From: a virus
Taxonomy: Duplodnaviria > Heunggongvirae > Uroviricota > Caudoviricetes
DNA length: 11,728 bases
Direction: 5' to 3' (one strand)
IMG/VR virus record: IMGVR_UViG_2565956624_000004
Location: 1 to 11,728 of that record
Part shown: piece by piece, positions 1 to 11,728 of the stretch
Layout: the number at the start of each line of letters is the position of its first letter
How positions within the stretch are numbered: the stretch's first letter is position 1
The notes under the pieces: generated by a model
Seen by the model: the letters and a program-made list of their open reading frames with translations, nothing else
The model's database searches: none
Told to the model about the DNA's origin: nothing
Program-made: the position numbers and the translations under genes

Positions 1-195
1 TCTCATATCAGGGACTTGTTCGCACCTTCCTTAGCACGTTTCTGTGATGCAGCAGCGAAAGCGCAGGACGCTAACAAGCTGCGTGAAATATTTGGCAAAT
101 GCTGGAAATTACTACCGGAAGGATCGGAACATCGAATCAAGGCAAAAGATGTTTATGACATCCGGGTAGCAGAGCTTAACGGGGAGATGGGTTAA
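1..195 (+). CDS. hypothetical protein, 3' fragment (start lies upstream of window)
   Basis: Frame 1 is open from base 1 to TAA at 193-195 (...DVYDIRVAELNGEMG*). The stop overlaps the ssb ATG as TAATG, implying translational coupling. No recognisable motif in the 64 visible residues. Confidence 0.4.
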   Translation, partial: SHIRDLFAPSLARFCDAAAKAQDANKLREIFGKCWKLLPEGSEHRIKAKDVYDIRVAELNGEMG

Positions 196-656
196 TGAGT
201 TTAAATTCAATCACGCTGGGCGGGAATATCGGTAATGATATGGAGGTTCGCTACACACAAAACGGGAAAGCGATTGGTAGTTTTCCGTTAGCTGTAACGA
301 ATGGCTACGGCGATAATAAGCGGACAATGTGGGTCACTTGCCTGGTATTTGGTGAGCGTGCGGAAAAATTAGCGCCACATATCCGCAAGGGTGGAAAAAT
401 AGTGGTAAGCGGTCGCCTGGATGTTCGGCAATATGACCGGAACGACGGCACGAAGGGAACGGCGGTAGAAGTGGCGGTTAACGAATTTGAATTCATGAAC
501 GTTAACCAACAAGGCCAGCAGCAAGGCCAGCAGCAGAAAGCGCCACCGCCTCAAAATAATAACGGGAATGATGTCCCTCCTGATTTCGATGACGACATCC
601 CATTTGCTCCTATGGGGTTACAATATGGCAAAAGCAGGATCTACGCGCTATCTTGA
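195..656 (+). CDS. ssb: single-stranded DNA-binding protein (SSB, OB-fold) with an atypical C-terminal extension
   Basis: N-terminal OB-fold region closely resembles bacterial/phage SSB (ITLGGNIGNDMEVRYTQNGKAIGSFPLAV...WVTCLVFGERAEKLAPHIRKGGKIVVSGRL). Gln/Gly-rich linker (QQGQQQGQQQ) and acidic motif PPDFDDDIPF are present. The ORF reads 17 codons past DDDIPF before its TGA stop. Confidence 0.9.
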   Translation: MSLNSITLGGNIGNDMEVRYTQNGKAIGSFPLAVTNGYGDNKRTMWVTCLVFGERAEKLAPHIRKGGKIVVSGRLDVRQYDRNDGTKGTAVEVAVNEFEFMNVNQQGQQQGQQQKAPPPQNNNGNDVPPDFDDDIPFAPMGLQYGKSRIYALS

Positions 657-918
657 TGCGCCGCCGATTCCGCGAACAAAAGAGCAAGTTCTAAAAGAAG
701 CCCGTGATCAAATAGATCATGGGCTTTTTTTATGCGGCACGGCAGCGGAACGGATGGCAAAAAGATTTAGTGACCTGTACGCAAAACAAATATGGTTCGA
801 CAACTGGCAGGCAAGTTTTTATCCGCTGCAAAGAAAACCGGATATGCACTGGCCTGAATATGTCGATCCACGTATGCGCAAATATCGCGGGCGTATGGGC
901 CAGGTCATTAATGATTAA
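625..918 (+). CDS. hypothetical protein
   Basis: ORF 568-918 in the track; the first ATG is at 625 (MAKAGSTRYLD...), inside the 3' end of ssb in another frame. No motif recognised. Start is uncertain (568 by the ORF track, 625 by first ATG). Confidence 0.4.
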   Translation: MAKAGSTRYLDAPPIPRTKEQVLKEARDQIDHGLFLCGTAAERMAKRFSDLYAKQIWFDNWQASFYPLQRKPDMHWPEYVDPRMRKYRGRMGQVIND

Positions 919-930
919 TGAGGTGTTATC

Positions 931-1155
931 ATGATTGAAGAAAAAGAAGTAGACAAGGAAATTCCTGACGGTCGTGATGAGCTTATTTGTTTTGACGGCG
1001 GCCTGTATGAGTTCGAAACGTCTGCGGGGTGGCACGATAAATGGCCTAAGCCTACTCGCCAGGAATTAAGCGACCGTAAATCATTCGGCGAAGATGCCGA
1101 ACGGCTGGCTAATAACAAATGGCTTGATAAGTTAATTGCGGAGGGTGGCAAATGA
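931..1155 (+). CDS. hypothetical protein (74 aa)
   Basis: ATG preceded by GAGG-type Shine-Dalgarno; acidic N-terminus; no recognisable domain. Confidence 0.5.
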   Translation: MIEEKEVDKEIPDGRDELICFDGGLYEFETSAGWHDKWPKPTRQELSDRKSFGEDAERLANNKWLDKLIAEGGK

Positions 1156-1265
1156 GCTTTGCAAAAATTGCCGCATTGGCTGCGGCGTTGGCTGTCGCGG
1201 CGCTATATCTTAGCGTATCGCTTTATATTACGGTGGCGATCATCAAGCTGATTACTACTATGTGA
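1152..1265 (+). CDS. small hydrophobic single-pass membrane peptide (37 aa)
   Basis: Not in the ORF track (below size cut-off). Strong SD GGAGGG 6 nt upstream of ATG 1152; ATGA overlap with the preceding stop. Translation MSFAKIAALAAALAVAALYLSVSLYITVAIIKLITTM is almost entirely hydrophobic. Confidence 0.4.
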   Translation: MSFAKIAALAAALAVAALYLSVSLYITVAIIKLITTM

Positions 1266-1273
1266 GGTTAATC

Positions 1274-1393
1274 ATGAAAGTCGGTAAGGATATTGTGACG
1301 GTCGCGTTTTGCATTATTTGCTTCCTGTTTGTGGTTGTTTTTTGTGGCGCACTTGCTGCGGTGGTCAACTTTATTTTCAGTGGGTTGCTGTGA
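1274..1393 (+). CDS. small hydrophobic single-pass membrane peptide (39 aa)
   Basis: Not in the ORF track. SD GTGAGGT 5 nt upstream of ATG 1274. Translation MKVGKDIVTVAFCIICFLFVVVFCGALAAVVNFIFSGLL; its stop overlaps the next ATG (TGATG). Confidence 0.4.
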   Translation: MKVGKDIVTVAFCIICFLFVVVFCGALAAVVNFIFSGLL

Positions 1394-1665
1394 TGAAAAC
1401 GTGGGATGCAAAGGCTGGTGATCTTGTCGTATTGCCTGAATATCGTGATGACCCTGGATTGGTTGTACTGAACAAGATGTGCAACGATCTTGAGCGCCCG
1501 CTATTGGTTAAATATCTGGACGGGGAAATCATAGAGCCACGCTACTTTGATGAGATTGAACTAAAGGCCCGCAATGTTCGCGTTAAGCCGTTCCGGGATT
1601 ATGTTGAAGACCACTGGCGGAAATTGTTCGCCGGACTGAATGGGATGTTTGGCGTATGGCTATAA
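1393..1665 (+). CDS. hypothetical protein (90 aa)
   Basis: In-frame ATG at 1393 within track ORF 1309-1665, coupled to the upstream peptide gene by TGATG; the longer 1309 start would overlap two upstream genes. Confidence 0.5.
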   Translation: MKTWDAKAGDLVVLPEYRDDPGLVVLNKMCNDLERPLLVKYLDGEIIEPRYFDEIELKARNVRVKPFRDYVEDHWRKLFAGLNGMFGVWL

Positions 1666-1847
1666 AATTAGTGAAAGTTAAAGACCTGAAAGGCGGCGAA
1701 AAGATCCGCACGTGGTATGGCTATAAATTTATTGTCGCTGCCTTTTCTTTCGGGCCTGTGGGTCAAGTAACATTATTTGATGAAGAAGATGACGAGGTGG
1801 GTAAATGGCATCTTGAGCAATATGTCGAGGTGTTAAATGAAAATTAA
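1656..1847 (+). CDS. hypothetical protein (63 aa)
   Basis: ORF with a 10-nt overlap with the upstream gene; acidic stretch DEEDDE; no domain recognised. Confidence 0.5.
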   Translation: MAIKLVKVKDLKGGEKIRTWYGYKFIVAAFSFGPVGQVTLFDEEDDEVGKWHLEQYVEVLNEN

Positions 1848-2169
1848 ATTCCATAAAGCATATGATAGCGAAACAAACAAGCTATCACTATTTATTGAAT
1901 TCGAACGCCGGATCGTGGTTGTTCCCTGGGCACGGCGCTTTAATGACGCCGCCGGGCGGCGACAATTCGCGGTCGATATGCTGTTACGCGGTTGCGGCCT
2001 TATGCGCCCGCTATCTGATTTAAAACGGATGATGCCTGGATCGTTCGGTCAGATTGATGAAATAGAAATAAGCCAGGAAGAGCTAAAACGGGCGCGTGAT
2101 TTATTCCTTTCAAGTGAAGGAAACCCGTTCAACCCAGAAACTGAAATGAAATGGCATCATCCACTATAA
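1837..2169 (+). CDS. hypothetical protein (110 aa)
   Basis: ORF overlapping the upstream stop, in the same orientation as its neighbours; no domain recognised. Confidence 0.5.
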   Translation: MKIKFHKAYDSETNKLSLFIEFERRIVVVPWARRFNDAAGRRQFAVDMLLRGCGLMRPLSDLKRMMPGSFGQIDEIEISQEELKRARDLFLSSEGNPFNPETEMKWHHPL

Positions 2170-2181
2170 AGGATAAATATC

Positions 2182-2802
2182 ATGAACGACATCAAAACGG
2201 CTTATTCACTCGGCAGCGAAGGCATGTTAATCACTCGCTACACTGAAGACGCAAGTTTTCATGAAGTAGAAATTAAAGATTATCACGAAGTATTGAAAGA
2301 TATGGAAGCTGGCAAGTATGACGCTGATTTGAATCTGGCGTTACAGATTGTTGATATTGTGATGGATGCAAACATCCGCGATTATGTGTCTTTAAGTGCG
2401 GAAGAAAAAACATCGGTAGCTCGCTATGTCTTCTGTCTTGCTTTCGTAAAACGCATGGAAGAGGAATATGGGCGCGTACCAGTGCCGGAAGATATTGACC
2501 CGCTTGCGTTCGGAAGCGCTGTTATCTTCCCGCTTGATGAAAAACGTATGGGAAGCATTGCGCTGTATTCTATGCGTGGCATGATGAAAAAACTCTTTGA
2601 AGTTAAGGTGATGCAGAAATGTATTGATGAAGGCCACAAAGAGGAAGAAATAAAATTTTTCATGCCATTGCTTTACGTTGAAATGGTCGGCAATGATATG
2701 CGTGCAAATGATCTAGGTGTACAGGCGGCTATTGCGGTGCTTAATGATGCACGGAAAAACTCACAGCCAATGCCTGAACCGGAAAAACGTGTACTGCATT
2801 AA
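2182..2802 (+). CDS. hypothetical protein (206 aa)
   Basis: Long ORF with AAGGA SD upstream; acidic, likely cytoplasmic; no domain recognised. Confidence 0.6.
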   Translation: MNDIKTAYSLGSEGMLITRYTEDASFHEVEIKDYHEVLKDMEAGKYDADLNLALQIVDIVMDANIRDYVSLSAEEKTSVARYVFCLAFVKRMEEEYGRVPVPEDIDPLAFGSAVIFPLDEKRMGSIALYSMRGMMKKLFEVKVMQKCIDEGHKEEEIKFFMPLLYVEMVGNDMRANDLGVQAAIAVLNDARKNSQPMPEPEKRVLH

Positions 2803-2806
2803 CAGC

Positions 2807-2883
2807 GTGATTGCGATCACATAAATATACATTTTGTGTTGTGATCGCGTATCCGTTTTGTAAACCGAAATCAAAAGGTTTAC
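2807..2883. promoter_or_regulatory. putative operator/promoter region: inverted 9-mers GCGATCACA (2813-2821) and TGTGATCGC (2840-2848) flanking an AT-rich spacer, plus hairpin GTAAACC-N10-GGTTTAC (2860-2883)
   Basis: Read directly from the 99-bp intergenic gap between the stop at 2802 and ATG 2902. Both 9-mers contain GATC. No convincing -35/-10 pair could be fixed by eye. Confidence 0.25.
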
Positions 2884-2901
2884 GGCACGGAGGAAAACAA
2901 G

Positions 2902-3120
2902 ATGGCCCGCGAATACATGCTTTATTGCGTTGAGGGTGGCGTAGGCCATGATGCCTACGTCGCCGGGAAAGGCTATCCAGCCGATGAAGTGCTTTCTAAT
3001 ATGCACTTCCGGGAAAATGAAAGCCGGGTGTCTGTGTGGAAACGGTGCATTGATGGTATTGAGGTTGTAAGTATCGAACGGTATTTAGGCACGTTTGATT
3101 ACGGTGTTATTGAGGCTTAA
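2902..3120 (+). CDS. hypothetical protein (72 aa)
   Basis: ORF with GGAGGAAAA SD upstream; first gene after the intergenic gap; no domain recognised. Confidence 0.5.
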   Translation: MAREYMLYCVEGGVGHDAYVAGKGYPADEVLSNMHFRENESRVSVWKRCIDGIEVVSIERYLGTFDYGVIEA

Positions 3121-3218
3121 TTATGGACGACACATTGTTTTATATGTGCTGTTGCTGGGGTTTTATTGCCTTATGCCTGTTTATCAGGTGGTTTATTGAA
3201 TACCATATGAGGTAATGT

Positions 3219-3413
3219 ATGGAACAAGAAACTGATTATCGAATACCTGATAGCCTAAAATTAGTTGGCATTGGTTTCGGGTGTAGATTTGTATCTGACG
3301 CAAAAGGAGCGATTTATTTAATACGTCTTATTGATGGCGTTCAACATATAAGGCGACTAGGAATTTACATCAAAGCATTCAGAAGGGGTTATTTAAAAAC
3401 TCATGAAATTTAA
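3219..3413 (+). CDS. hypothetical protein (64 aa)
   Basis: ORF in the track; AT-rich codon usage differs from its neighbours; no domain recognised. Confidence 0.4.
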   Translation: MEQETDYRIPDSLKLVGIGFGCRFVSDAKGAIYLIRLIDGVQHIRRLGIYIKAFRRGYLKTHEI

Positions 3414-3606
3414 ACATTACATGGAATGGAAAATTCCAGAAGCAGCAACAAAGGCAGCGCCAGGAAATTATTCTGGCGTTTATTTTTATATGGATGGCAA
3501 ATGGTATTTCGGCAGCAGGCCGGATCACTATTATCAGGAAATATGCAAGCCTCACGTATGGGATATTAAAGAGCGCGTGAAAGGCGGGGTAATTGAGGAC
3601 GTTTAA
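3403..3606 (+). CDS. hypothetical protein (67 aa)
   Basis: ORF overlapping the upstream gene by 11 nt; Tyr/Trp-rich; no domain recognised. Confidence 0.45.
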   Translation: MKFKHYMEWKIPEAATKAAPGNYSGVYFYMDGKWYFGSRPDHYYQEICKPHVWDIKERVKGGVIEDV

Positions 3607-3607
3607 A

Positions 3608-3844
3608 ATGCTTAAGAGCTTTTTTAACTGGTTGGGGGCGTGGCTTTTGGCTACGCTTTTTGTTTTCCTGGCGGCCATGACTGTTATCGGTGTTATTATG
3701 CTGGGGGCTATGTTTATTACGTGGTCGCTTCCTGAATTTAACGACATTGGGAATATTCTTTTTGCAGCCCGCGCTTTATTGGCTGTTAGCGCATTCATTG
3801 GTTTTTGCTGGACTGCCGCGCCGGATTGGACTGACACATGGTGA
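3608..3844 (+). CDS. small integral membrane protein (about 2 predicted TM helices)
   Basis: ATG 3608 (track ORF begins at a TTG at 3593), GAGGA SD upstream. Two long hydrophobic segments (WLLATLFVFLAAMTVIGVIMLGAMFI and LFAARALLAVSAFIGFCW). Confidence 0.5.
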   Translation: MLKSFFNWLGAWLLATLFVFLAAMTVIGVIMLGAMFITWSLPEFNDIGNILFAARALLAVSAFIGFCWTAAPDWTDTW

Positions 3845-3848
3845 TCCT

Positions 3849-4082
3849 ATGGCCTTATTCAATATGTCAGAGCCGCAATTTAACGCCGTAAAGACTGCCG
3901 CCCGCGCCGCGCTTTCGGCCTGCAAAGCGGAGGTAGAGAAAAACGGCTACAGCGATAAAGCCACGCGGATGATATTAGATAAGCATTATCGCAAAGTCGC
4001 CCCACTAATCAGCATTGAGCGCTTTGTGTGGTTGGTGGGGTATTTAAACAACCGTTGGGGAACGAAACAGGATTATTTCTAA
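3849..4082 (+). CDS. hypothetical protein (77 aa)
   Basis: In-frame ATG 3849 within track ORF 3690-4082, directly after the upstream stop at 3844; no domain recognised. Confidence 0.45.
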   Translation: MALFNMSEPQFNAVKTAARAALSACKAEVEKNGYSDKATRMILDKHYRKVAPLISIERFVWLVGYLNNRWGTKQDYF

Positions 4083-4091
4083 GGGGGCGTA

Positions 4092-4631
4092 ATGAAAAGT
4101 GATTACGGCGGCAGCCATACGCCGAAAGAAATAAAAGACTTATGGCAAACGCCAAAACCCGTTTTTAGAGGAATGGATCGCGAGTTCGAATTTGTCGCAG
4201 ATGTGGCGGCAAACAGGGAAAACGCGCTCGTTCCTCGGTATATAACTGAAGAAATGGACGCGCTTACTTATCCGTGGGGAGCGGTGGCAATGCCTGGCGA
4301 ATATGTATGGATGAATCCACCATATTCAAACCCAGGTCCATTCGTTGATAAAGCAGCGCTCGAACATCAACGAAATCACATCGGTTGCGTAATGTTATTG
4401 CCCGCTGACGTTTCTGTTAGCTGGTTTATGAACGGCGTTGAGACGGCAAATGAGTGCCGATTAATCACGCGCGGGCGGCTGGCGTTTATCAATGCTGCGA
4501 CTGGTAAGCCAGTAAGCGGAAACAATAAAGGGAGCTTGTTTTTGATCTGGCATCCACGGTGCAGACATGAATGTATTTTCACGCAGATAACACGTAAAGA
4601 GCTATATGCAAGAGGTGCAGATAATGACTAA
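4092..4631 (+). CDS. phage-type DNA N6-adenine methyltransferase (Dam-like, NPPY motif)
   Basis: Translation has N-terminal WQTPKPVF and the catalytic motif IV NPPY (WMNPPYSN). This pattern and the ~180 aa size match the small phage Dam family (T1 Dam-like) as I recall it. Confidence 0.75.
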   Translation: MKSDYGGSHTPKEIKDLWQTPKPVFRGMDREFEFVADVAANRENALVPRYITEEMDALTYPWGAVAMPGEYVWMNPPYSNPGPFVDKAALEHQRNHIGCVMLLPADVSVSWFMNGVETANECRLITRGRLAFINAATGKPVSGNNKGSLFLIWHPRCRHECIFTQITRKELYARGADND

Positions 4632-5109
4632 TGCAGCAGATTTATTACGACTTGCAGCGGAAACAATAGAGCAAAGAGGTAAACAAAACGGTTACGACAG
4701 AAAAGAAGAAAAATCAGCGCCAAAAATAGCCACTATATACAACGCTAAGAAGGGGACAAATTTAACCCCGCTTGATGTATGGGATCTATTAATTTGTCTC
4801 AAGGAGGCGCGTTTAGAGGCCATTTTAGTTAATGAAAGCGATCCTACTGACACTTTGGTTGACTTGATTAGCTACAGCGCACTAAAAGCGGAGCAGATAT
4901 TAAACGATCAGGAGGAAGAACGGAAGAAAAAACAGTTCACTGCCGCCAATATTAATGATGGAATAATAAATGATGCAGCAATAACAAGCTGTAAGGGCTT
5001 GCCTCCTTCAATGCTTAACCCTCAATGTCGTTGTACTACTGATTCGCTTGATTTGAATTTTGACTTCAGTCGGAAGAGGGATAACCAAAATGAAAAAGGT
5101 GACAATTGA
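4624..5109 (+). CDS. hypothetical protein with low-complexity C-terminal half
   Basis: ATG 4624 with SD AGAGGTG 6 nt upstream (track ORF starts at 4606). Overlaps the methyltransferase stop. C-terminal half is N/D/K-rich low complexity. Confidence 0.5.
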   Translation: MTNAADLLRLAAETIEQRGKQNGYDRKEEKSAPKIATIYNAKKGTNLTPLDVWDLLICLKEARLEAILVNESDPTDTLVDLISYSALKAEQILNDQEEERKKKQFTAANINDGIINDAAITSCKGLPPSMLNPQCRCTTDSLDLNFDFSRKRDNQNEKGDN

Positions 5110-5593
5110 CAGGTTACTGGCCTGCGTTTATGTCGCCGTTTTCGTGATCATCAACCTTATTGTTAACCATTGCGGCCCGTGGGTAATTCCGATCACCACG
5201 GTAGCCGCAGTGTGTGTCAATATGATGATCCGCGACTTTCTGTTATATGACGGCGGCCTGAAATGGTCGGCTACAACGTGCGCAGCCGCTGGCGCAATCA
5301 CGGTGCTGATAAACTACGATGCCGGAATGGTGGCGGTCGCGTCATTCGTTGCGGTTGTTTCCGGTGCGCTTATATCTGGCGGCGTTTACCGGGTTTTACC
5401 TGGTGATTTCGATTCCAAACGCTGGCCTGCAAATATAGCTTCAGCCATTGGAGATGCGTTAATTTTTCCCACGCTATCGTTTATGGCATTTATGCCGGAA
5501 ATATCAGCTATGCAATTCATCTCAAAAATGGCAGCGGTAACGGTGATCACTATCATCATGCGCCGCTATTTTACGTTTGAGGGCAGAAAATGA
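5090..5593 (+). CDS. integral membrane protein, possibly VUT/YhhQ-family (queuosine-precursor-transporter-like)
   Basis: ATG 5090 (track ORF starts at TTG 5060). Several hydrophobic helices. The segment IASAIGDALIFPTLSFMAF resembles the conserved C-terminal segment of YhhQ/DUF165 proteins (TASTLFGNVSDTLAFFFIAF) as I recall it. The family assignment is tentative. Confidence 0.45.
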   Translation: MKKVTIDRLLACVYVAVFVIINLIVNHCGPWVIPITTVAAVCVNMMIRDFLLYDGGLKWSATTCAAAGAITVLINYDAGMVAVASFVAVVSGALISGGVYRVLPGDFDSKRWPANIASAIGDALIFPTLSFMAFMPEISAMQFISKMAAVTVITIIMRRYFTFEGRK

Positions 5594-6354
5594 GTGGGCT
5601 TAAAAATTGGGTGGTGTGGTCGCTGTACGACGGCAGCGGGTACGCCGTTAAAGATTGGGCTGACGCTGGCTATAAGTGTTATTGCTTCAACTATGACGGC
5701 GCTAACCACGGCGACTATGAAGGCGTAAAAATCATTCATCCGAATATTGAATACGTTAACGTATGGATTGACAGCCATTTCCTGGTGATGTTCTCCCCTG
5801 ATTTGTCTGTTTATCCAGATCCTGACATTATTCTGGCCTTCCCGCCATGCGACCATCTAGCCGTGTCCGGCGCTCGTTGGTTTGCCAGCAAGCGTGAAAA
5901 AGATCCTGACTTCCAGGTGAAGGCGGCATATAACGCAAAACTGGTAGAAACGCTGGCTGACATGTATCACGTCCCGTGGATGGTGGAAAATCCGGTTGGC
6001 GCACTGTCAACGTTATGGCGTAAGCCGGATTTTATCTTCAACCCGTGCGCTTACGGTGGCTACCTGCCTGAAGATGACAAACATCCTGCCTTCCCGGAAT
6101 ACATCGCCGACCGCGACGCATACACGAAGAAAACTTGTATCTGGTGCGGGAATGGATTTAATCAGCCGCTATTCCTGCCTGTGCCAATGCCTGATGAATG
6201 GGAAGACAGTAAGCAGCACGCTAAGTTAGGAGGAAAGTCGAAACGCACTAAGATGATCCGCTCACTAACGCCGCGTGGCTTTGCCCGTGCTGTATTCCTG
6301 GCTAACGACCGGGCCATCAATCGTACTACGCTCAACCGCGTTTTACCGGACTGA
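5590..6354 (+). CDS. compact DNA (cytosine-5)-methyltransferase-like protein
   Basis: Motifs in canonical C5-MTase order: motif I-like SLYDGSGYA, motif IV FPPCDHLAVSGA (Pro-Cys dipeptide, but PCD instead of PCQ), motif VI MVENPVGAL (ENV-like), motif IX-like RSLTPRGFARAVFL (RxLTPRExARLQGF pattern). At 254 aa it is short for the family. Confidence 0.6.
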   Translation: MSGLKNWVVWSLYDGSGYAVKDWADAGYKCYCFNYDGANHGDYEGVKIIHPNIEYVNVWIDSHFLVMFSPDLSVYPDPDIILAFPPCDHLAVSGARWFASKREKDPDFQVKAAYNAKLVETLADMYHVPWMVENPVGALSTLWRKPDFIFNPCAYGGYLPEDDKHPAFPEYIADRDAYTKKTCIWCGNGFNQPLFLPVPMPDEWEDSKQHAKLGGKSKRTKMIRSLTPRGFARAVFLANDRAINRTTLNRVLPD

Positions 6355-6376
6355 AGTTTACAAAATGGCGTCATTG

Positions 6377-6437
6377 TGTGATACAGGTCACATAATGGCG
6401 CTTTTCGTCTTGTTTACGTGTATCCATTTTGTATACT
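6377..6437 (+). promoter_or_regulatory. putative sigma70-type promoter (-35 TTGTTT 6410-6415, 16-bp spacer, -10 TATACT 6432-6437) with an upstream CRP-like palindrome TGTGA-N6-TCACA (6377-6392)
   Basis: Hexamers and palindrome read directly from the 160-bp gap between the stop at 6354 and ATG 6514. The palindrome matches both half-sites of the CRP consensus and is centred about 60 bp upstream of the predicted start site. Confidence 0.35.
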
Positions 6438-6513
6438 TCAAGCAAACGAAATGCTCTTTAAAAATCCGGCAGCGCTGAAATGCGTAGAAATCACCTTAAA
6501 GGGAGGGAGCATT

Positions 6514-6690
6514 ATGTCTTTTGATAATTACCAATGGCATGACGACTATGAACGAGAAAGCGTCATGCGTGCAATGTGCAATGTATGCAGCACAAAGAAA
6601 GGAGGCTGTAACGAGTGCAACGAATGCTTAGATCATTGGCTAAGGGCCGGACACACCGAAAGGCTGAACGAAACAGAGAATCAAAAATAA
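6514..6690 (+). CDS. small Cys-rich (zinc-ribbon-like) protein, NinF-like
   Basis: ATG 6514 with strong SD GGGAGGGAG upstream (the track's longer 6418 start lacks this). CxxC...CxxCxxC pattern (MCNVCSTKKGGCNECNEC). Sits immediately upstream of ninG as NinF does in lambda; the NinF resemblance is from memory. Confidence 0.45.
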   Translation: MSFDNYQWHDDYERESVMRAMCNVCSTKKGGCNECNECLDHWLRAGHTERLNETENQK

Positions 6691-6704
6691 TAGGGGTGGT
6701 TTTT

Positions 6705-7310
6705 ATGCAGAACCCTAAAAAACCAATAAGACGCCGTTGCAAGTGCTGCGGCGTTTTTTTTGAGCCTAAATATCACAATCAAACGTGGTGCAGTGATGAG
6801 TGTCTGGAAGAGCTGAAGTTTGATCAGCTATGCCGCGACCGTGAGAAGGCTATGAAGGCTATGGAACGGAAGAAACGCCGTGATAGCCAGCGGGAAGAAC
6901 GCAACCGGAAGCGGAAGCAGTTAAATCCGCGTAGTTATTGGTTGAAGCAGGCACAAGCGGTATTTAATGCCTATATCCGCGAACGTGACGCGGGTCAGCC
7001 GTGCATATCATGCGGGACTTACTATTACGAACAATGCGGAGCAGATGCCGGACACTATAGAACGGTTGCCGCCGCCGGGCACCTTCGTTTTAACGAGGAT
7101 AATTGCCACAAACAATGCAGGCACTGCAACCAGACATTAGATGGCAACATAGAAGCATATCGCCCAGCGCTGATTAGGAAAATTGGCCTTGCCAGGGTGG
7201 AAGCGCTGGAGAACAACAACGAAACTCATAAATGGGCGATCGAAGAATGCAAGGAGATCATAAAAGTCTATCAGGCTAAATTGGACGCCTTAAGGAGAAA
7301 GGCAGCATGA
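6705..7310 (+). CDS. ninG: NinG/Rap-family recombination protein (structure-specific endonuclease)
   Basis: In-frame ATG 6705 with SD GGGGTGG. Translation carries NinG hallmarks: N-terminal RRRCKCCGVFF, PRSYWLKQAQ, PCISCG, DAGHYR, LRFNEDNCHKQCRHCN, and C-terminal IEECKEI. Confidence 0.85.
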   Translation: MQNPKKPIRRRCKCCGVFFEPKYHNQTWCSDECLEELKFDQLCRDREKAMKAMERKKRRDSQREERNRKRKQLNPRSYWLKQAQAVFNAYIRERDAGQPCISCGTYYYEQCGADAGHYRTVAAAGHLRFNEDNCHKQCRHCNQTLDGNIEAYRPALIRKIGLARVEALENNNETHKWAIEECKEIIKVYQAKLDALRRKAA

Positions 7311-7708
7311 ATGAATATACTTTTAGCCTGCCTTACCCGCCATCGAACAATAAATATTACCGGCATTCGCGCGGTTTCCACTATATAAGCAAGGAAGGTA
7401 AGGAATACAGGGAGCAGGTAAAAGACATTATAAAACTGCTTAATCTGAAAATTAATCTTAAGTGTAGGCTATCAATAACGGTGTATATTGCACCGCCAGA
7501 TAACAGACGCCGCGATATTGACAATGTAGGGAAGGCATTATTTGACGCTATAACTTATTCCGGTTTTTGGGCTGATGATAGCCAGGTTGACGCAATGAAA
7601 TTTGTCCGCTGCCGGAAGGTAAAAAGAGGGCGATTGTTTATCAAGGTACGCGAACGCGGCGACCTGTTACCGGATATTAACGAATACTTGACTAATATGT
7701 GGTGGTAA
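7307..7708 (+). CDS. rusA: RusA-family Holliday junction resolvase
   Basis: Translation matches RusA along its length: YTFSLPYPPSNNKYYRH, PPDNRRRDIDNVGKALFDAITYSGFWADDSQV, RGRLFIKV. ATGA overlap with ninG. Confidence 0.85.
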   Translation: MNEYTFSLPYPPSNNKYYRHSRGFHYISKEGKEYREQVKDIIKLLNLKINLKCRLSITVYIAPPDNRRRDIDNVGKALFDAITYSGFWADDSQVDAMKFVRCRKVKRGRLFIKVRERGDLLPDINEYLTNMWW

Positions 7709-7710
7709 CA

Positions 7711-7893
7711 ATGAAAAACGAAATTAAAGATCTGCAAATAGATATTCAGCGCGACGAGCGTGATTTAGCCACAGTCCGACAAATTCAGGCTTTTCACATG
7801 CGAGAATTACTTGCACTGAAAGAGTTTGAAAGAAAGCTAGTGCAATCAATATCTGATCGCAAAAGACTGGTTGCACGTTACGGGGGTAAATAA
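7711..7893 (+). CDS. hypothetical coiled-coil protein (60 aa)
   Basis: ATG 7711 three nt after the rusA stop; charged, helical-looking sequence. Occupies the small-ORF slot often found between rusA and Q in lambdoid prophages. Confidence 0.45.
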   Translation: MKNEIKDLQIDIQRDERDLATVRQIQAFHMRELLALKEFERKLVQSISDRKRLVARYGGK

Positions 7894-8615
7894 TGAATTT
7901 GGAATCTATTCTTAAATTCCACTTCCCAAAATCACCGCGTTTGTCAGATGAAAGCCGGGGCACGTCCCCGGATGCGCTTAATACTACGGATGCGCTAACT
8001 GCCGCTGGTATGGCGCAATCGCGCGTAGAGCTTGGTTATAGCGCTTTTCTGGGAAAGATGGAACTATCACAAGCCGAAAAACATAAGGCCGTAGTTTTGC
8101 TTATAGAGCGTTTAAAGGCTATGGCAAAAGATTATGAATACGTTATGGAACTGGACGAGGCTAAACGCAATGATCTCATTATTCTTGTTGCCGTTTTCGC
8201 GTTTCGGGATTATTGCCAGAGTGCCGCGACGGAAAAAACTTGTATGGAGTGCGGCGGATATAAATTTACGTTTGACGAATACGGAGAAAAACACCTTTGC
8301 AAAAAATGCAAGGGGCATGGGAAGGTTCTCAATCATTGTAAACAATGCAAGGGCCGTGGCGAAGTACCGGATAAAGCAGCCAGCGAAGCGGCGGAAATGC
8401 CAGTGTTCAAAACGTGCCAGCATTGCGGCGGGCGCGGGTACTCGCGTTTCCCCGTAGATCTTGTGCGTCAGGCCGTTAATCAGCTTGTTTTTCCGGTAAG
8501 CCGATCAACCTGGTGGAAAAAATACCGGGTTTTCTATGAAGACGCCATAGCGGAGCTATTCAAAGAAGAGGGCCGCGCGGAAAGTGAAATCAAACGAGTG
8601 ACACGGGGTGAATAA
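7893..8615 (+). CDS. putative Q-like antitermination protein with DnaJ-type zinc finger
   Basis: Four CxxCxGxG repeats (CMECGGYK, CKKCKGHG, CKQCKGRG, CQHCGGRG), i.e. a DnaJ CR-type zinc finger. Position directly downstream of ninG-rusA is where Q sits in lambdoid phages. The Q assignment is inference from position plus zinc-binding architecture. Confidence 0.45.
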   Translation: MNLESILKFHFPKSPRLSDESRGTSPDALNTTDALTAAGMAQSRVELGYSAFLGKMELSQAEKHKAVVLLIERLKAMAKDYEYVMELDEAKRNDLIILVAVFAFRDYCQSAATEKTCMECGGYKFTFDEYGEKHLCKKCKGHGKVLNHCKQCKGRGEVPDKAASEAAEMPVFKTCQHCGGRGYSRFPVDLVRQAVNQLVFPVSRSTWWKKYRVFYEDAIAELFKEEGRAESEIKRVTRGE

Positions 8616-8815
8616 TGGATAAGCTGGAAATAAACGATCAGTTTGCCGTTATCTTATTTGAAGATAAAACAGGCGGCGCATGGTGTAAGAAAGTCACTGG
8701 CGCGGAAGCGCGTTTAATATTGGGTATGGCAAGCGCGTTAAATGAAGGCGAATTGCCAGCCATCCCTATTAAGCCTGTCAAAATTTACAAGCGGGGTGAC
8801 GATGATGAAGCCTAA
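8615..8815 (+). CDS. hypothetical protein (66 aa)
   Basis: ORF whose ATG overlaps the upstream stop (TAATG); acidic C-terminus; no domain recognised. Confidence 0.45.
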   Translation: MDKLEINDQFAVILFEDKTGGAWCKKVTGAEARLILGMASALNEGELPAIPIKPVKIYKRGDDDEA

Positions 8816-9074
8816 ACTAAAAGAACATCTATTTGCAAAGCTGGTTAATGACCTGACATTATCCGCGCGGTTGTGCCGTGATACACAACAATTGAGGGCG
8901 TGGATAGCAAGGGATTTAAAAAAATATATTGAGCCTGGCGGGCCGGGTGGCGAAATCACGATGGACGAAGCCATCAAGCGCCGTTCGGCTGAATGGTCAG
9001 TGAGTAACACCGGATTAACCGGATACATTGAAGGCTATAACGACTGTTTACAGGATCATAGCGATGGCAAGTAA
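8805..9074 (+). CDS. hypothetical protein (about 89 aa)
   Basis: In-frame ATG 8805 (alternative 8802) with SD GGGGTG 6 nt upstream, within track ORF 8742-9074; no domain recognised. Confidence 0.45.
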   Translation: MKPKLKEHLFAKLVNDLTLSARLCRDTQQLRAWIARDLKKYIEPGGPGGEITMDEAIKRRSAEWSVSNTGLTGYIEGYNDCLQDHSDGK

Positions 9075-9375
9075 AGACCTGCATTTGAATCTGAAAGGGG
9101 AATATTTCCACGCCATATGGACTGGAAAGAAGGTGGAGGAATACCGGCTTTATAATGACTATTGGCGTAAACGTCTGGAAGGGCGGGAATATGAACGCCT
9201 GATTATTAAATGGGGATACCCTGCCAACCACGAAAAACACAGGATTATTAACCTTCCTTATTTTGGGTACGAAGTAAAAACTATCACTCATCCATTATTC
9301 GGCCCTGATCCTGTTAAGGTATTCGCAATTAAATGTGACAGAAATTGGATGTTGAGAGGTGAAAATGAAAAGTAA
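9064..9375 (+). CDS. putative ASCH/PUA-like domain protein
   Basis: In-frame ATG 9064 with AGGA 8 nt upstream. N-terminal pattern LNLKGEYFHAIWTGKKVEEYR resembles the ASCH signature (hydrophobic strand, then G-K-K-x-x-E-x-R). Tentative. Confidence 0.4.
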   Translation: MASKDLHLNLKGEYFHAIWTGKKVEEYRLYNDYWRKRLEGREYERLIIKWGYPANHEKHRIINLPYFGYEVKTITHPLFGPDPVKVFAIKCDRNWMLRGENEK

Positions 9376-9580
9376 CCGCAAGCGCCTTGTAAGGGCGTAC
9401 GACAAAGCATTAAAGGCTTTTGATGATCTGCGACACAATAAACGCCAGCGCCGCAAATGGGCGCGTATGCTTGTTTATGAGTGGCATTATTCTGATGCTT
9501 TTATGGAAAGCGCACCGCTATTAACACAAGAACAAGCCGACGAAGTGGCTAACGATAACGTTTATTATATGATGTGGTGA
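9365..9580 (+). CDS. hypothetical protein, paralog A of a tandem pair
   Basis: ATG 9365 (track ORF starts at GTG 9359). MKSNRKRLVRAYDKALKAFDDL... ends ...DNVYYMMW. Clearly homologous to the next gene. Confidence 0.5.
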   Translation: MKSNRKRLVRAYDKALKAFDDLRHNKRQRRKWARMLVYEWHYSDAFMESAPLLTQEQADEVANDNVYYMMW

Positions 9581-9584
9581 CAAT

Positions 9585-9806
9585 ATGAAAAGTAACCGTA
9601 AGCGCATGATAAGAGCATATGATAAAGCGTTAATGGAATTTGACATACTACCACGCAGCAAGCGCCACCGCCGCCAATTTGCGAGATATATTTTTCATAT
9701 ATGGCACGATGCTGATTTCTTTTTTGATGCCAGATATATAACACAGGAAGATGCTGATAATATAGCTTACGATAACGTTTACTACATAATGAGTGAGTGT
9801 AATTAA
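9585..9806 (+). CDS. hypothetical protein, paralog B of a tandem pair
   Basis: MKSNRKRMIRAYDKALMEFDIL...DNVYYIMSECN; N- and C-termini conserved with paralog A, central region diverged. Confidence 0.5.
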   Translation: MKSNRKRMIRAYDKALMEFDILPRSKRHRRQFARYIFHIWHDADFFFDARYITQEDADNIAYDNVYYIMSECN

Positions 9807-9807
9807 T

Positions 9808-10173
9808 ATGCAAATAATCATTGATTACCTTTGCCACGCTGTAAATACTCTTTTTGGTTTTTATCAACAACCATTCCTCAAAGAATGGGACGAAATGCTT
9901 AATGACATCATTGATAAAGGGTTAATAGTTGAGGTTGGCAAGCTAACGATAAAATTTAATTACGAAGGCAAAGAATATGAAATATGGGTAGGTAATAGAT
10001 GGTACTCATACGGGCATATTTATTCAATTGGCGGCAAATACATTAAACGTAGCCAGGAGTTCAGGCCGCGATTCCGCACAATGCGCCGCCTGCGTGACCT
10101 GCATATGAATATATTTGAAAATCAGGAAGCGTGTGAACTATTCAAGATCTACGGGGATAAATCATGGAGCTAA
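9808..10173 (+). CDS. hypothetical protein (121 aa)
   Basis: ATG 9808 two nt after the upstream stop (track ORF starts at GTG 9793); no domain recognised. Confidence 0.5.
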   Translation: MQIIIDYLCHAVNTLFGFYQQPFLKEWDEMLNDIIDKGLIVEVGKLTIKFNYEGKEYEIWVGNRWYSYGHIYSIGGKYIKRSQEFRPRFRTMRRLRDLHMNIFENQEACELFKIYGDKSWS

Positions 10174-10394
10174 AAATCTGGCAGGCTATTGACGTGGTTG
10201 ATAATGAATTGTCTATGTTCGCCACTAACGGGAAACGCGTTGTGATCGCTACATGGACACGTAACCATGATGATATTGCTTTTCGTCGCAAGGCTGCGGA
10301 ATGGCTTTTCTCAGATGGCGGCTACACGATGAACATCGCACAGCTTGCCAGAATGAAAGATGAAAAGCTGGTGGACAGCTACACAACTGCGTAA
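10164..10394 (+). CDS. hypothetical protein (76 aa)
   Basis: ORF overlapping the upstream gene by 10 nt; no domain recognised. Confidence 0.45.
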   Translation: MELKIWQAIDVVDNELSMFATNGKRVVIATWTRNHDDIAFRRKAAEWLFSDGGYTMNIAQLARMKDEKLVDSYTTA

Positions 10395-10404
10395 TGGGGT
10401 GAAT

Positions 10405-10635
10405 ATGCGTATCTATGAACACAAGCGGGATAAAACCCGCTTTTTTGTTCGTGCTGGCGTGGCGTACCAGTATCACGAATGCGGTTACATTGAGGCGCTT
10501 GCTTACGATCTGGATTTTGAGCAAGAAAAGGCATGGTTCGATTTTAAAATTTACCGGAAGCGCAAACCAACACGCGACGAGCGCCACGCTATCCGGGACT
10601 TTTTAATCAGTATTGAGCGCTGGGGGACAGATTAA
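10405..10635 (+). CDS. hypothetical protein (76 aa)
   Basis: In-frame ATG 10405 with GGGGTG upstream, within track ORF 10360-10635; basic protein; no domain recognised. Confidence 0.4.
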   Translation: MRIYEHKRDKTRFFVRAGVAYQYHECGYIEALAYDLDFEQEKAWFDFKIYRKRKPTRDERHAIRDFLISIERWGTD

Positions 10636-10862
10636 TGAAAGTAAAATTCTTGCACGATCACGGTTATCCGTCATTGAAACAGGTTGTTGGTAAGGTGGTT
10701 GACGTCGTTCATAGTGATAATGTCACTTGCATGATTAACGGTGCTGACCTAATTGCCGCTGGCGCTGATGATCATTACATTAATCCTGCATGGTCGTATA
10801 CGTTCAGCCTGGGAGACTTCGTTGGCGACAAGGGGCGCGGGCTGGAAGTGGTCGAGGGTTAA
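10635..10862 (+). CDS. hypothetical protein (75 aa)
   Basis: TAATG overlap with the upstream gene; no domain recognised. Confidence 0.45.
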   Translation: MKVKFLHDHGYPSLKQVVGKVVDVVHSDNVTCMINGADLIAAGADDHYINPAWSYTFSLGDFVGDKGRGLEVVEG

Positions 10863-10866
10863 CATC

Positions 10867-11115
10867 ATGGACGTTTACGAAGATCTATACCTCCATACAG
10901 ACATAAACACTTTTTATTTTCTTAAAAACGGCGTCGTGTATCGCAGTGACGACGGGGTGATAATGAAAGAGTGGTTATTTAAGCGTAAAGACCTACTCGA
11001 CGATCTGGTTTTTGCCGGGATATTTCGTAAACGTCCGGCTAACCTGGAAGAAGAAATGTTGATAGAGGTATATCAAAATGAAAATCAGGGTAAGTTATTT
11101 CCGGGCGAAAGATAA
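10867..11115 (+). CDS. hypothetical protein (82 aa)
   Basis: In-frame ATG 10867 within track ORF 10753-11115, 4 nt after the upstream stop; no domain recognised. Confidence 0.45.
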   Translation: MDVYEDLYLHTDINTFYFLKNGVVYRSDDGVIMKEWLFKRKDLLDDLVFAGIFRKRPANLEEEMLIEVYQNENQGKLFPGER

Positions 11116-11329
11116 GGCAACGGGAAAGCAGATGGCGATCCTGGTTAACGAGGCGCAGTACATGTTTGTCCTTCAGCCGTGGTGTGTTGTAGACCTTAAC
11201 GACAATTGCCGCCGTCACGCTGCGCGGAGCGCTGTAGGCATGAAAGGATGGCAGCCGCGCGACATGGAAAACTATTGTGAATGGAAATTGGTGGCAAAAT
11301 ACACGGTAGACTATAAAGGGGTTTTCTGA
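11078..11329 (+). CDS. hypothetical protein (83 aa; alternative start 11132)
   Basis: ATG 11078 has GAGGT 8 nt upstream but overlaps the preceding gene by 38 nt. An internal ATG at 11132 would avoid the overlap. Two CxxC-like pairs (CVVDLNDNC, and one Cys in ENYCEWK). Confidence 0.4.
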   Translation: MKIRVSYFRAKDKATGKQMAILVNEAQYMFVLQPWCVVDLNDNCRRHAARSAVGMKGWQPRDMENYCEWKLVAKYTVDYKGVF

Positions 11330-11586
11330 TGGAACATTTATATTTTAATGTAATTCAGACTCGCGATCTCGACAAATTCAAAGACGGTAAGGTTTATTGC
11401 GGGGTTCAGATTTACGGTGCGCCTGGTGGTGATGGTGCAATGGCTATAACTGGCGATGATGGTAAGTTATATTTTGCTTATGCAAGCCATATCAATAACG
11501 CCTCTGGCTTGTATATTTATCGCATCGTGCATGATTTCCGTGAGATCGCTGTACTTCATGCTCGCGAAGGTAGTAAACCGGAATAA
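11329..11586 (+). CDS. hypothetical protein (85 aa)
   Basis: ATG overlapping the upstream stop (TGATG); Gly-rich segment GAPGGDGAMAITGDDG; no domain recognised. Confidence 0.45.
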   Translation: MEHLYFNVIQTRDLDKFKDGKVYCGVQIYGAPGGDGAMAITGDDGKLYFAYASHINNASGLYIYRIVHDFREIAVLHAREGSKPE

Positions 11587-11612
11587 ATGTGATCTACCAC
11601 ACAAAGTTTACG

Positions 11613-11640
11613 AAATGGCATTGTTTAGGCAGTGCCATTT
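11613..11640. promoter_or_regulatory. inverted repeat AAATGGCA-N12-TGCCATTT in a 96-bp intergenic gap (operator, weak terminator or RNA hairpin)
   Basis: Read directly; 8-bp perfect arms with a 12-nt loop, followed by TTGTTACATATAAG, which contains -10-like hexamers. Only a short T run follows the stem, so a strong intrinsic terminator is not supported. Confidence 0.2.
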
Positions 11641-11682
11641 TGTTACATATAAGCCACGGAAAGACGAATGGGAGGTAAGAAG

Positions 11683-11728
11683 ATGAACGCTAACGCTAAG
11701 GAAGGTGCGAATAAGCGGGGAAATTCTT
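11683..11728 (+). CDS. hypothetical protein, 5' fragment (continues beyond window)
   Basis: ATG 11683 with strong SD GGGAGGT 6 nt upstream; MNANAKEGANKRGNS... open to the window end. Confidence 0.35.
   Translation, partial: MNANAKEGANKRGNS

Follow-up and report, generated by a model that had tools for sequence, protein, structure and literature searches.

Gene content of the locus

The window analysed here is the whole 11,728-nucleotide stretch of viral DNA at positions 1 to 11,728 of IMG/VR record IMGVR_UViG_2565956624_000004, and our subject is one of its genes, an open reading frame (ORF) on the + strand at 5590-6354 that runs from an ATG at 5590 to a TGA at 6352-6354 and codes for 254 amino acids (aa). 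Judging from sequence and predicted structure, we consider it most probable (roughly 0.85) that this gene encodes an active, S-adenosylmethionine (SAM)-dependent, orphan DNA cytosine-C5 methyltransferase (MTase) of a compact phage family called “Dcm-like”. A megablast search with positions 4000-7400 gave seven full-length matches at 86-90% identity, all of them to mEp021-like (mEpimmI) temperate coliphages or to the related MagusPhagus, and the gene order of the window agrees with that of mEp021 when the annotations are compared; by sequence, the window is the early-right region of a mEp021-like (mEpimmI) temperate coliphage. The features of the gene are as follows:

5579..5583, + strand: Shine-Dalgarno-like GAGGG, 6 nt 5' of the ATG, read from the sequence; a ribosome-binding site is annotated at the equivalent place in mEp021
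5590..6354, + strand: predicted coding sequence of a compact Dcm-like DNA C5-cytosine methyltransferase (orthologue of mEp021 gp33), from the ORF, PHROG 757, homologues, an AlphaFold2 model and the ratio of nonsynonymous to synonymous substitution rates (dN/dS)
5620..5643, + strand: motif I-like SAM-binding loop SLYDGSGY, aa 11-18, after strand beta1; aligned to DNMT3B SLFDGIATG in a profile search
5839..5856, + strand: motif IV catalytic loop FPPCDH, aa 84-89, with Cys87 as predicted nucleophile
5986..6000, + strand: motif VI ENPVG, aa 133-137, with Glu133 as predicted proton donor to cytosine N3
6115..6159, + strand: putative motif VIII-like segment DAYTKKTCIWCGNGF, aa 176-190, strand beta7
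6160..6240, + strand: minimal target-recognition region, aa 191-217, with a conserved LGGKS loop and a presumed role in DNA recognition
6241..6309, + strand: motif IX/X-like C-terminal helices KRTKMIRSLTPRGFARAVFLAND, aa 218-240, including the motif IX-like RSLTPRGFARA, aa 224-234
6367..6402, + strand: terminator-like hairpin, a 16-bp stem followed by a T-run, 13 nt past the stop codon

The ATG overlaps the stop codon of an upstream membrane-protein gene (ATGA, 5590-5593), an overlap which suggests that the two genes are translationally coupled. At the other end, the hairpin matches in position TERM_4, which is annotated after gp33 in mEp021, and nutR2 has been placed downstream of the methyltransferase gene in mEpimmI phages (PMC11893012).

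A large family of compact methyltransferases

The protein matches PHROG 757, “DNA methyltransferase”, over aa 5-247 (E = 6e-88). A search of 5.8 billion proteins returned 2612 homologues, nearly all of 225-260 aa and with E-values down to 1e-167, several of which carry the NCBI name DNA cytosine methyltransferase. When 1.84 billion representatives were searched with a profile, 2097 clusters (50% identity) scored E ≤ 1e-3 and 945 of these E ≤ 1e-10, again mostly of 210-260 aa. By tblastn, 1517 of 50,697 phage records (about 3%) carry the family, mainly those of phages of Escherichia, Klebsiella, and Salmonella, and its carriers belong to unrelated groups including Drexlerviridae, rV5-like phages, Kagunavirus, and phiKO2. 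The median length of the 269 members that we retrieved is 232 aa. Since members are mostly of 210-260 aa, compactness is a trait of a very large family and not of this gene, which is of a kind already known and annotated, in a family with demonstrated 5-methylcytosine (5mC) activity.

The initial annotation of the gene had described a C5-cytosine-methyltransferase-like protein with its motifs in order, and this reading held, as YDGSGY, FPPCDH, ENPVG, and RSLTPRGFARA are all present. It had also pointed to the little room that 254 aa leave for a target-recognition domain, and indeed 38 residues separate W185 from R224. The emphasis on an unusually compact enzyme with something other than PCQ in its catalytic loop was right for the protein itself, but both features turned out to be family-wide, the catalytic loop reading PCT in 226 of 244 members.

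“Dcm-like” is a name and not a statement of orthology to E. coli Dcm. Such an orthology was considered and rejected: the E. coli enzyme is CCWGG-specific and about 470 aa long, and the window protein has about half this length and no NCBIfam match at E ≤ 1. Some phages have the compact MTase domain as part of much larger fusion proteins (P0250, 563 aa; P0264, 453 aa; P0232, 414 aa), and the BFVD entry A0A6J5SE15_1 is a 1397-aa fusion named “Helicase/UvrB, N-terminal”.

Conserved residues and predicted structure

Conservation was counted over 56 diverse members of the family, 31-59% identical to the window protein. The residues C87, E133, P152, Y178, W185, and P193 are invariant, and all are present in the window protein; F84, P85, N134, P135, R144, D176, K180, T182, R224, S225, P228, and G230 are nearly so. 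C87 (56/56) aligns to the PC of both M.HhaI and DNMT3B, and E133 is followed by N134 in 52/56 and P135 in 55/56 members, in register with the ENV of M.HhaI. The motif VIII-like strand reads Y-T-K180-K181-T182-C-I-W, with K180 and T182 each found in 55/56; its lysines would occupy the motif VIII positions where the arginines of QxRxR, which contact the flipped cytosine, are expected, a mapping that comes from the strand order of our model and from a superposition made by the authors of the phage K42 study presented below. From W185, at the end of this strand, to R224 of motif IX there are 38 residues, with a family median of 36 and a range of 28-53. Because this spacing is just 38 residues, the predicted recognition segment is only vestigial. 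A separate GN(A/S)V motif X is not recognisable in the window protein.

The AlphaFold2 model, built with a 30-sequence alignment, has a mean predicted local distance difference test score (pLDDT) of 86.6 and a predicted template modelling score of 0.86, and its strands and helices follow one another as in class I methyltransferases, with a strand at aa 182-187 and helices at 218-225 and 229-239. Besides the disordered C-terminal tail, the target-recognition region is the part of the model with the lowest confidence (block pLDDT 69-77). When compared with the PDB by Foldseek, all of the top 50 matches are methyltransferase domains of the DNMT3 family (DNMT3A/3B and one DNMT3C; best E = 2.9e-7), and the matches in BFVD are compact (225-aa) viral homologues named DNA-cytosine methylase.

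The likeness to DNMT3 extends beyond the fold, as the catalytic domains of DNMT3A and DNMT3B are compact as well, at about 280 aa, their recognition loop is small, their motif IV also does without Gln (SPCNDLS vs FPPCDHLAVS in the window protein), and motifs I-IV align by sequence. The two mammalian enzymes differ from the window protein in that they share just 11-17% identity with it, act on CpG as DNMT3L-assisted oligomers, and carry regulatory PWWP/ADD domains. With the classical C5-MTases (M.HhaI, M.HaeIII, and E. coli Dcm; PF00145), the window protein has PC and ENx in register and would share the covalent-catalysis mechanism, whereas it differs in size (254 vs 327-472 aa), in the spacing between motifs VIII and IX (about 38 residues vs roughly 100 in M.HhaI), and in its signature residues, the family having PCD/PCT, ENP, and K-K-T where the classical enzymes have PCQ, ENV, and R-x-R in motif VIII.

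A homologue with demonstrated activity on DNA

The link to a measured activity runs through Escherichia phage KarlJaspers (MZ501090), whose gene bas06_0055, annotated “Dcm-like C5 cytosine methyltransferase”, has a length of exactly 711 bp and codes for 236 aa; the window protein is 60% identical to its product over 234 aa (E = 5e-101). Phage K42, a strain of KarlJaspers, is reported as 95.4% identical to Bas06 at the genome level (bioRxiv 10.1101/2023.08.16.553469). Mutants of K42 that escape the retron Ec86 all disrupt a 711-bp dcm gene, expression of K42 Dcm is toxic only when Ec86 is present, and wild-type K42 Dcm leads in vivo to high 5mC on the multicopy single-stranded DNA (msDNA) of retron Ec86, as measured by liquid chromatography-mass spectrometry; this 5mC is lost with the mutant C82A/E128A/K175A/K176A, and the authors modelled the enzyme on DNMT3A (bioRxiv 10.1101/2023.08.16.553469). 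We equated the K42 dcm gene with that of KarlJaspers through gene length and residue numbering. The preprint on retron Ec86 was reportedly published later as Wang et al., Cell Rep 2024, doi 10.1016/j.celrep.2024.114857. In our KarlJaspers alignment, C82, E128, K175, and K176 of K42 Dcm fall exactly on C87, E133, K180, and K181 of the window protein.

The K42/KarlJaspers enzyme (Bas06, Drexlerviridae), which triggers retron Ec86/Eco1, thus belongs to the same family as the window protein, with the same architecture, the same N34, and the same DNMT3A-like predicted fold. The two differ in the catalytic loop, which reads PCTD in K42/KarlJaspers Dcm vs PCDH in the window protein, and in an additional C-terminal tail of about 14 aa, predicted to be disordered, that only the latter has. 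Their settings differ as well, since the former is encoded by a virulent T1-like phage without a VUT neighbour and the latter by a temperate mEpimmI phage. Since the characterised enzyme reads PCT, we infer the activity of the PCD variant only by analogy with this PCT-type homologue.

Nearer orthologues retain PCD: gp33 of mEp021 (“putative DNA cytosine methyltransferase”, about 86% aa identity), which differs from the window protein in the N-terminus and in the segment resembling a target-recognition domain, and CDS0097 of MagusPhagus (“DNA methyltransferase”, 94% aa identity). Both phages share the gene order of the window, namely Dam, DUF6378, membrane protein, Dcm-like, terminator, and NinG. 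Seven genomes of related phages have the Dcm-like gene annotated, and the paper on mEpimmI phages gives the methyltransferase gene a brief mention and no experiments (PMC11893012). Purifying selection acts on the gene, with a dN/dS of 0.113 against mEp021 and 0.058 against MagusPhagus (dS 0.47-0.80).

Genomic neighbourhood

Three genes precede the Dcm-like gene on the same strand:

4092..4631, + strand: Dam (N6-adenine methyltransferase), PF05869 E = 2e-52, TIGR01712 E = 2e-42
4606-5109, + strand: DUF6378 protein, 167 aa, PF19905 E = 9e-8
5060..5593, + strand: VUT/YhhQ-like membrane protein with 6 predicted transmembrane (TM) segments, PHROG 4899; weak Vut_1 match (E = 0.23) across the entire profile

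Together with the Dcm-like gene, they form a run of four genes overlapping head-to-tail, 4092-6402 (+), with the terminator-like hairpin at its end; because of these overlaps and of the hairpin, the Dam-DUF6378-VUT-Dcm-like block looks like a single translationally coupled module. The block has two DNA methyltransferases that differ in base specificity. Its DUF6378 protein also matches PHROGs 474 and 1167, labelled “phosphofructokinase”, a label which, on a phage protein of 167 aa, looks like an annotation artefact.

Homologues of the 6-TM protein, at 33-35% identity, are annotated as VUT family proteins, and by sequence it is a remote homologue of the VUT/YhhQ family of queuosine-precursor transporters. 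The VUT homologue of Pectobacterium phage PEAT2 and that of Escherichia phage Opt-719 each have the gene of a DpdA-type transglycosylase directly after them, and the Dcm-like gene occupies in the window the slot held by DpdA in these two phages. With two DpdA proteins as queries, tblastn found no DpdA in the window, nor in the part of mEp021 that was sampled, nor in 52 kb of the 54.4-kb MagusPhagus. We considered, and rejected, the Dcm-like protein as the transferase of a 7-deazaguanine system marked by the VUT gene: it is unrelated to the DpdA of PEAT2 and Opt-719, it has a Rossmann fold and not a TIM barrel, and its family is about 75 times commoner than the VUT homologue.

Proposed mechanism and role

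The gene would be expressed from the N-antiterminated early-right operon as the last of the four overlapping genes, with the terminator after it. Following the C5-MTase paradigm, SAM would be bound by a seven-stranded Rossmann-type sheet, on the face that carries motifs I-III, and the target cytosine would be flipped out; the Cys87 thiolate would then attack C6 while Glu133 of ENP protonates N3, and the methyl group would be passed to C5 before beta-elimination frees the enzyme. To recognise DNA, it probably relies on short loops instead of a separate recognition domain, the candidate contacts, from the same paradigm and from the K42 mutant, being K180/K181, the segment of about 38 residues with its LGGKS loop, and the catalytic loop.

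The enzyme would probably serve to protect phage DNA from 5mC-sensitive restriction enzymes by methylating it, host DNA being methylated incidentally. In the BASEL study, such genes showed no simple relation to restriction resistance (PMC8594841), and such enzymes have a cost, as they trigger retron Ec86/Eco1 (bioRxiv 10.1101/2023.08.16.553469). The family matters in that it abounds in coliphages and Klebsiella phages, can shield phage DNA from 5mC-sensitive restriction, and acts as a retron Ec86/Eco1 trigger.

Weighing the assignment and its alternatives

Several points weigh against an active DNA cytosine-C5 methyltransferase. The window protein has no match in a Pfam scan (E ≤ 1), PF00145 included, none in an NCBIfam scan at the same threshold, and none by phmmer against PDB sequences. 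Because of this lack of Pfam and NCBIfam matches, its motif-level membership of PF00145 rests on its relatives, its fold, and the characterised homologue: 13 of 30 relatives match PF00145 weakly, two of them above the gathering score (28.5 and 24.7 bits vs 22), with the matches that pass the threshold covering only profile positions 4-94 of 324, that is, motifs I-IV. The profile and structure comparison with known families that had been proposed in the initial annotation came out unevenly, C5-MTases of the DNMT3 type being the top fold matches while the comparison with M.HhaI was weak: hhalign brought motifs IV-VI of the 56-sequence profile, and no others, into register (E = 0.085), and in hmmsearch, the family profile found motif IV only (the M.HhaI sequence used is 327/327 identical to 10mh_A). 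Given these weak comparisons, motifs VIII-X cannot be mapped by sequence. A profile of 30 relatives against the PDB reached E = 0.2 for DNMT3B and 0.8 for M.HaeIII, over motifs I-IV. The glycine loop of motif I is only loosely conserved, G17 being found in 40/56 members. As for the homologue, the four mutations of K42 Dcm were tested only in combination, and its CCWGG specificity was put forward by analogy with E. coli Dcm and from msDNA mutants, in the dcm+ host MG1655 (bioRxiv 10.1101/2023.08.16.553469); our literature searches for a determined recognition sequence of the compact Dcm-like family found none. Nor did we find a direct assay of the window protein or of any PCD-type member.

The alternatives receive little weight because the homologue is active, position 88 is variable, the invariant residues are kept, and the gene is under purifying selection. 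The first of them, a PCD clade catalytically weakened or dead and kept for DNA binding, as a decoy, or for regulation, appears very unlikely. An acidic residue beside the nucleophile might perturb the catalytic loop, and N34 stands in place of the motif II aspartate found in more than 90% of distant relatives (52/56 in our set). However, N34 is common to the window protein and the active K42/KarlJaspers enzyme, all of the family-invariant residues are present, the purifying selection is strong, and substitutions at positions 88 and 89 are each seen in otherwise intact members of the family.

It is also highly improbable that the C5-MTase scaffold was kept for another purpose, with the PCD loop and the tiny recognition region reflecting, as the initial annotation had suggested, another chemistry or substrate; examples would be carboxymethyl transfer from carboxy-S-adenosylmethionine (Cx-SAM), of the kind known from DNA C5-carboxymethyltransferases (PDB 8yf3 type), or an RNA, tRNA, or free-nucleotide target. 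In the window protein, D88 takes the place of the Gln that follows the catalytic Cys in the PCQ of the PF00145 superfamily. Across 244 family members, this residue is T in 226, D in 12, E in 3, and Q, V, and N in one each, so that PCD, read from these sequences, is a departure from the PCT of the family rather than from PCQ. D88 is retained throughout the clade of the window protein while residue 89 drifts (H in the window, D in mEp021, N in MagusPhagus), a constancy that would fit an altered chemistry, as would the coupling to a VUT/YhhQ-like transporter without a detectable DpdA partner. Against this, D88 variants also occur in unrelated branches of the family (e.g., P0134, P0197, and P0114), and the corresponding residue is Q in M.HhaI and N in DNMT3B, with which the family profile has its best sequence match in the PDB; since DNMT3B has PCN, a Gln after the Cys is not obligatory even in well-studied C5-MTases. 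The VUT homologue is found in just 20 phage records vs 1517 for the MTase family, which argues that the family is independent of VUT. An RNA substrate fits poorly with a fold comparison in which DNA MTases rank above DNMT2 and RsmB, and with a motif VI that reads ENP and not the TC motif of RNA m5C methyltransferases (RsmB/NSUN). The 60%-identical homologue forms 5mC on DNA, and the suggestion of another transferred group or substrate found no support. The initial annotation had itself named orthology to a characterised orphan Dcm-type enzyme with the same motif variants as what would speak for an ordinary methyltransferase; K42/KarlJaspers Dcm is essentially such an enzyme, except that its loop has PCT, not PCD.

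Another reading, in which the PCD subclade of mEpimmI phages has changed its target specificity or cofactor use with respect to the PCT majority, and the Dam-DUF6378-VUT-Dcm-like module does more than plain 5mC formation, strikes us as a long shot. Finally, the idea that the ORF is non-coding or mis-called, and that the likeness of its motifs is due to chance, can practically be dismissed, as only the absence of Pfam and NCBIfam matches speaks for it, against thousands of full-length homologues with E-values to 1e-167, a confident model, a dN/dS of about 0.1, and an annotation in seven genomes. An active DNA cytosine-C5 methyltransferase thus accounts best for this gene.

Other features of the window

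Outside the four-gene block, the following genes were assigned:

195-656: SSB
between the terminator-like hairpin and NinG: NinF-like ORF
6615-7310: NinG
7307-7708: RusA-like resolvase
7893-8615, + strand: antiterminator Q, PF03589 E = 2e-28

An Rfam scan of the window gave no match. The Q-type antiterminator at 7893-8615 has an additional match to a DnaJ-type CXXCXGXG zinc finger (E = 6.5e-6), under the gathering score. Further downstream, two adjacent ORFs of 73 aa, at 9359-9580 and 9585-9806 (+) and starting MKMKSNRKRLVRAYDKALKAFDDL and MKSNRKRMIRAYDKALMEFDIL, respectively, are tandem paralogues.

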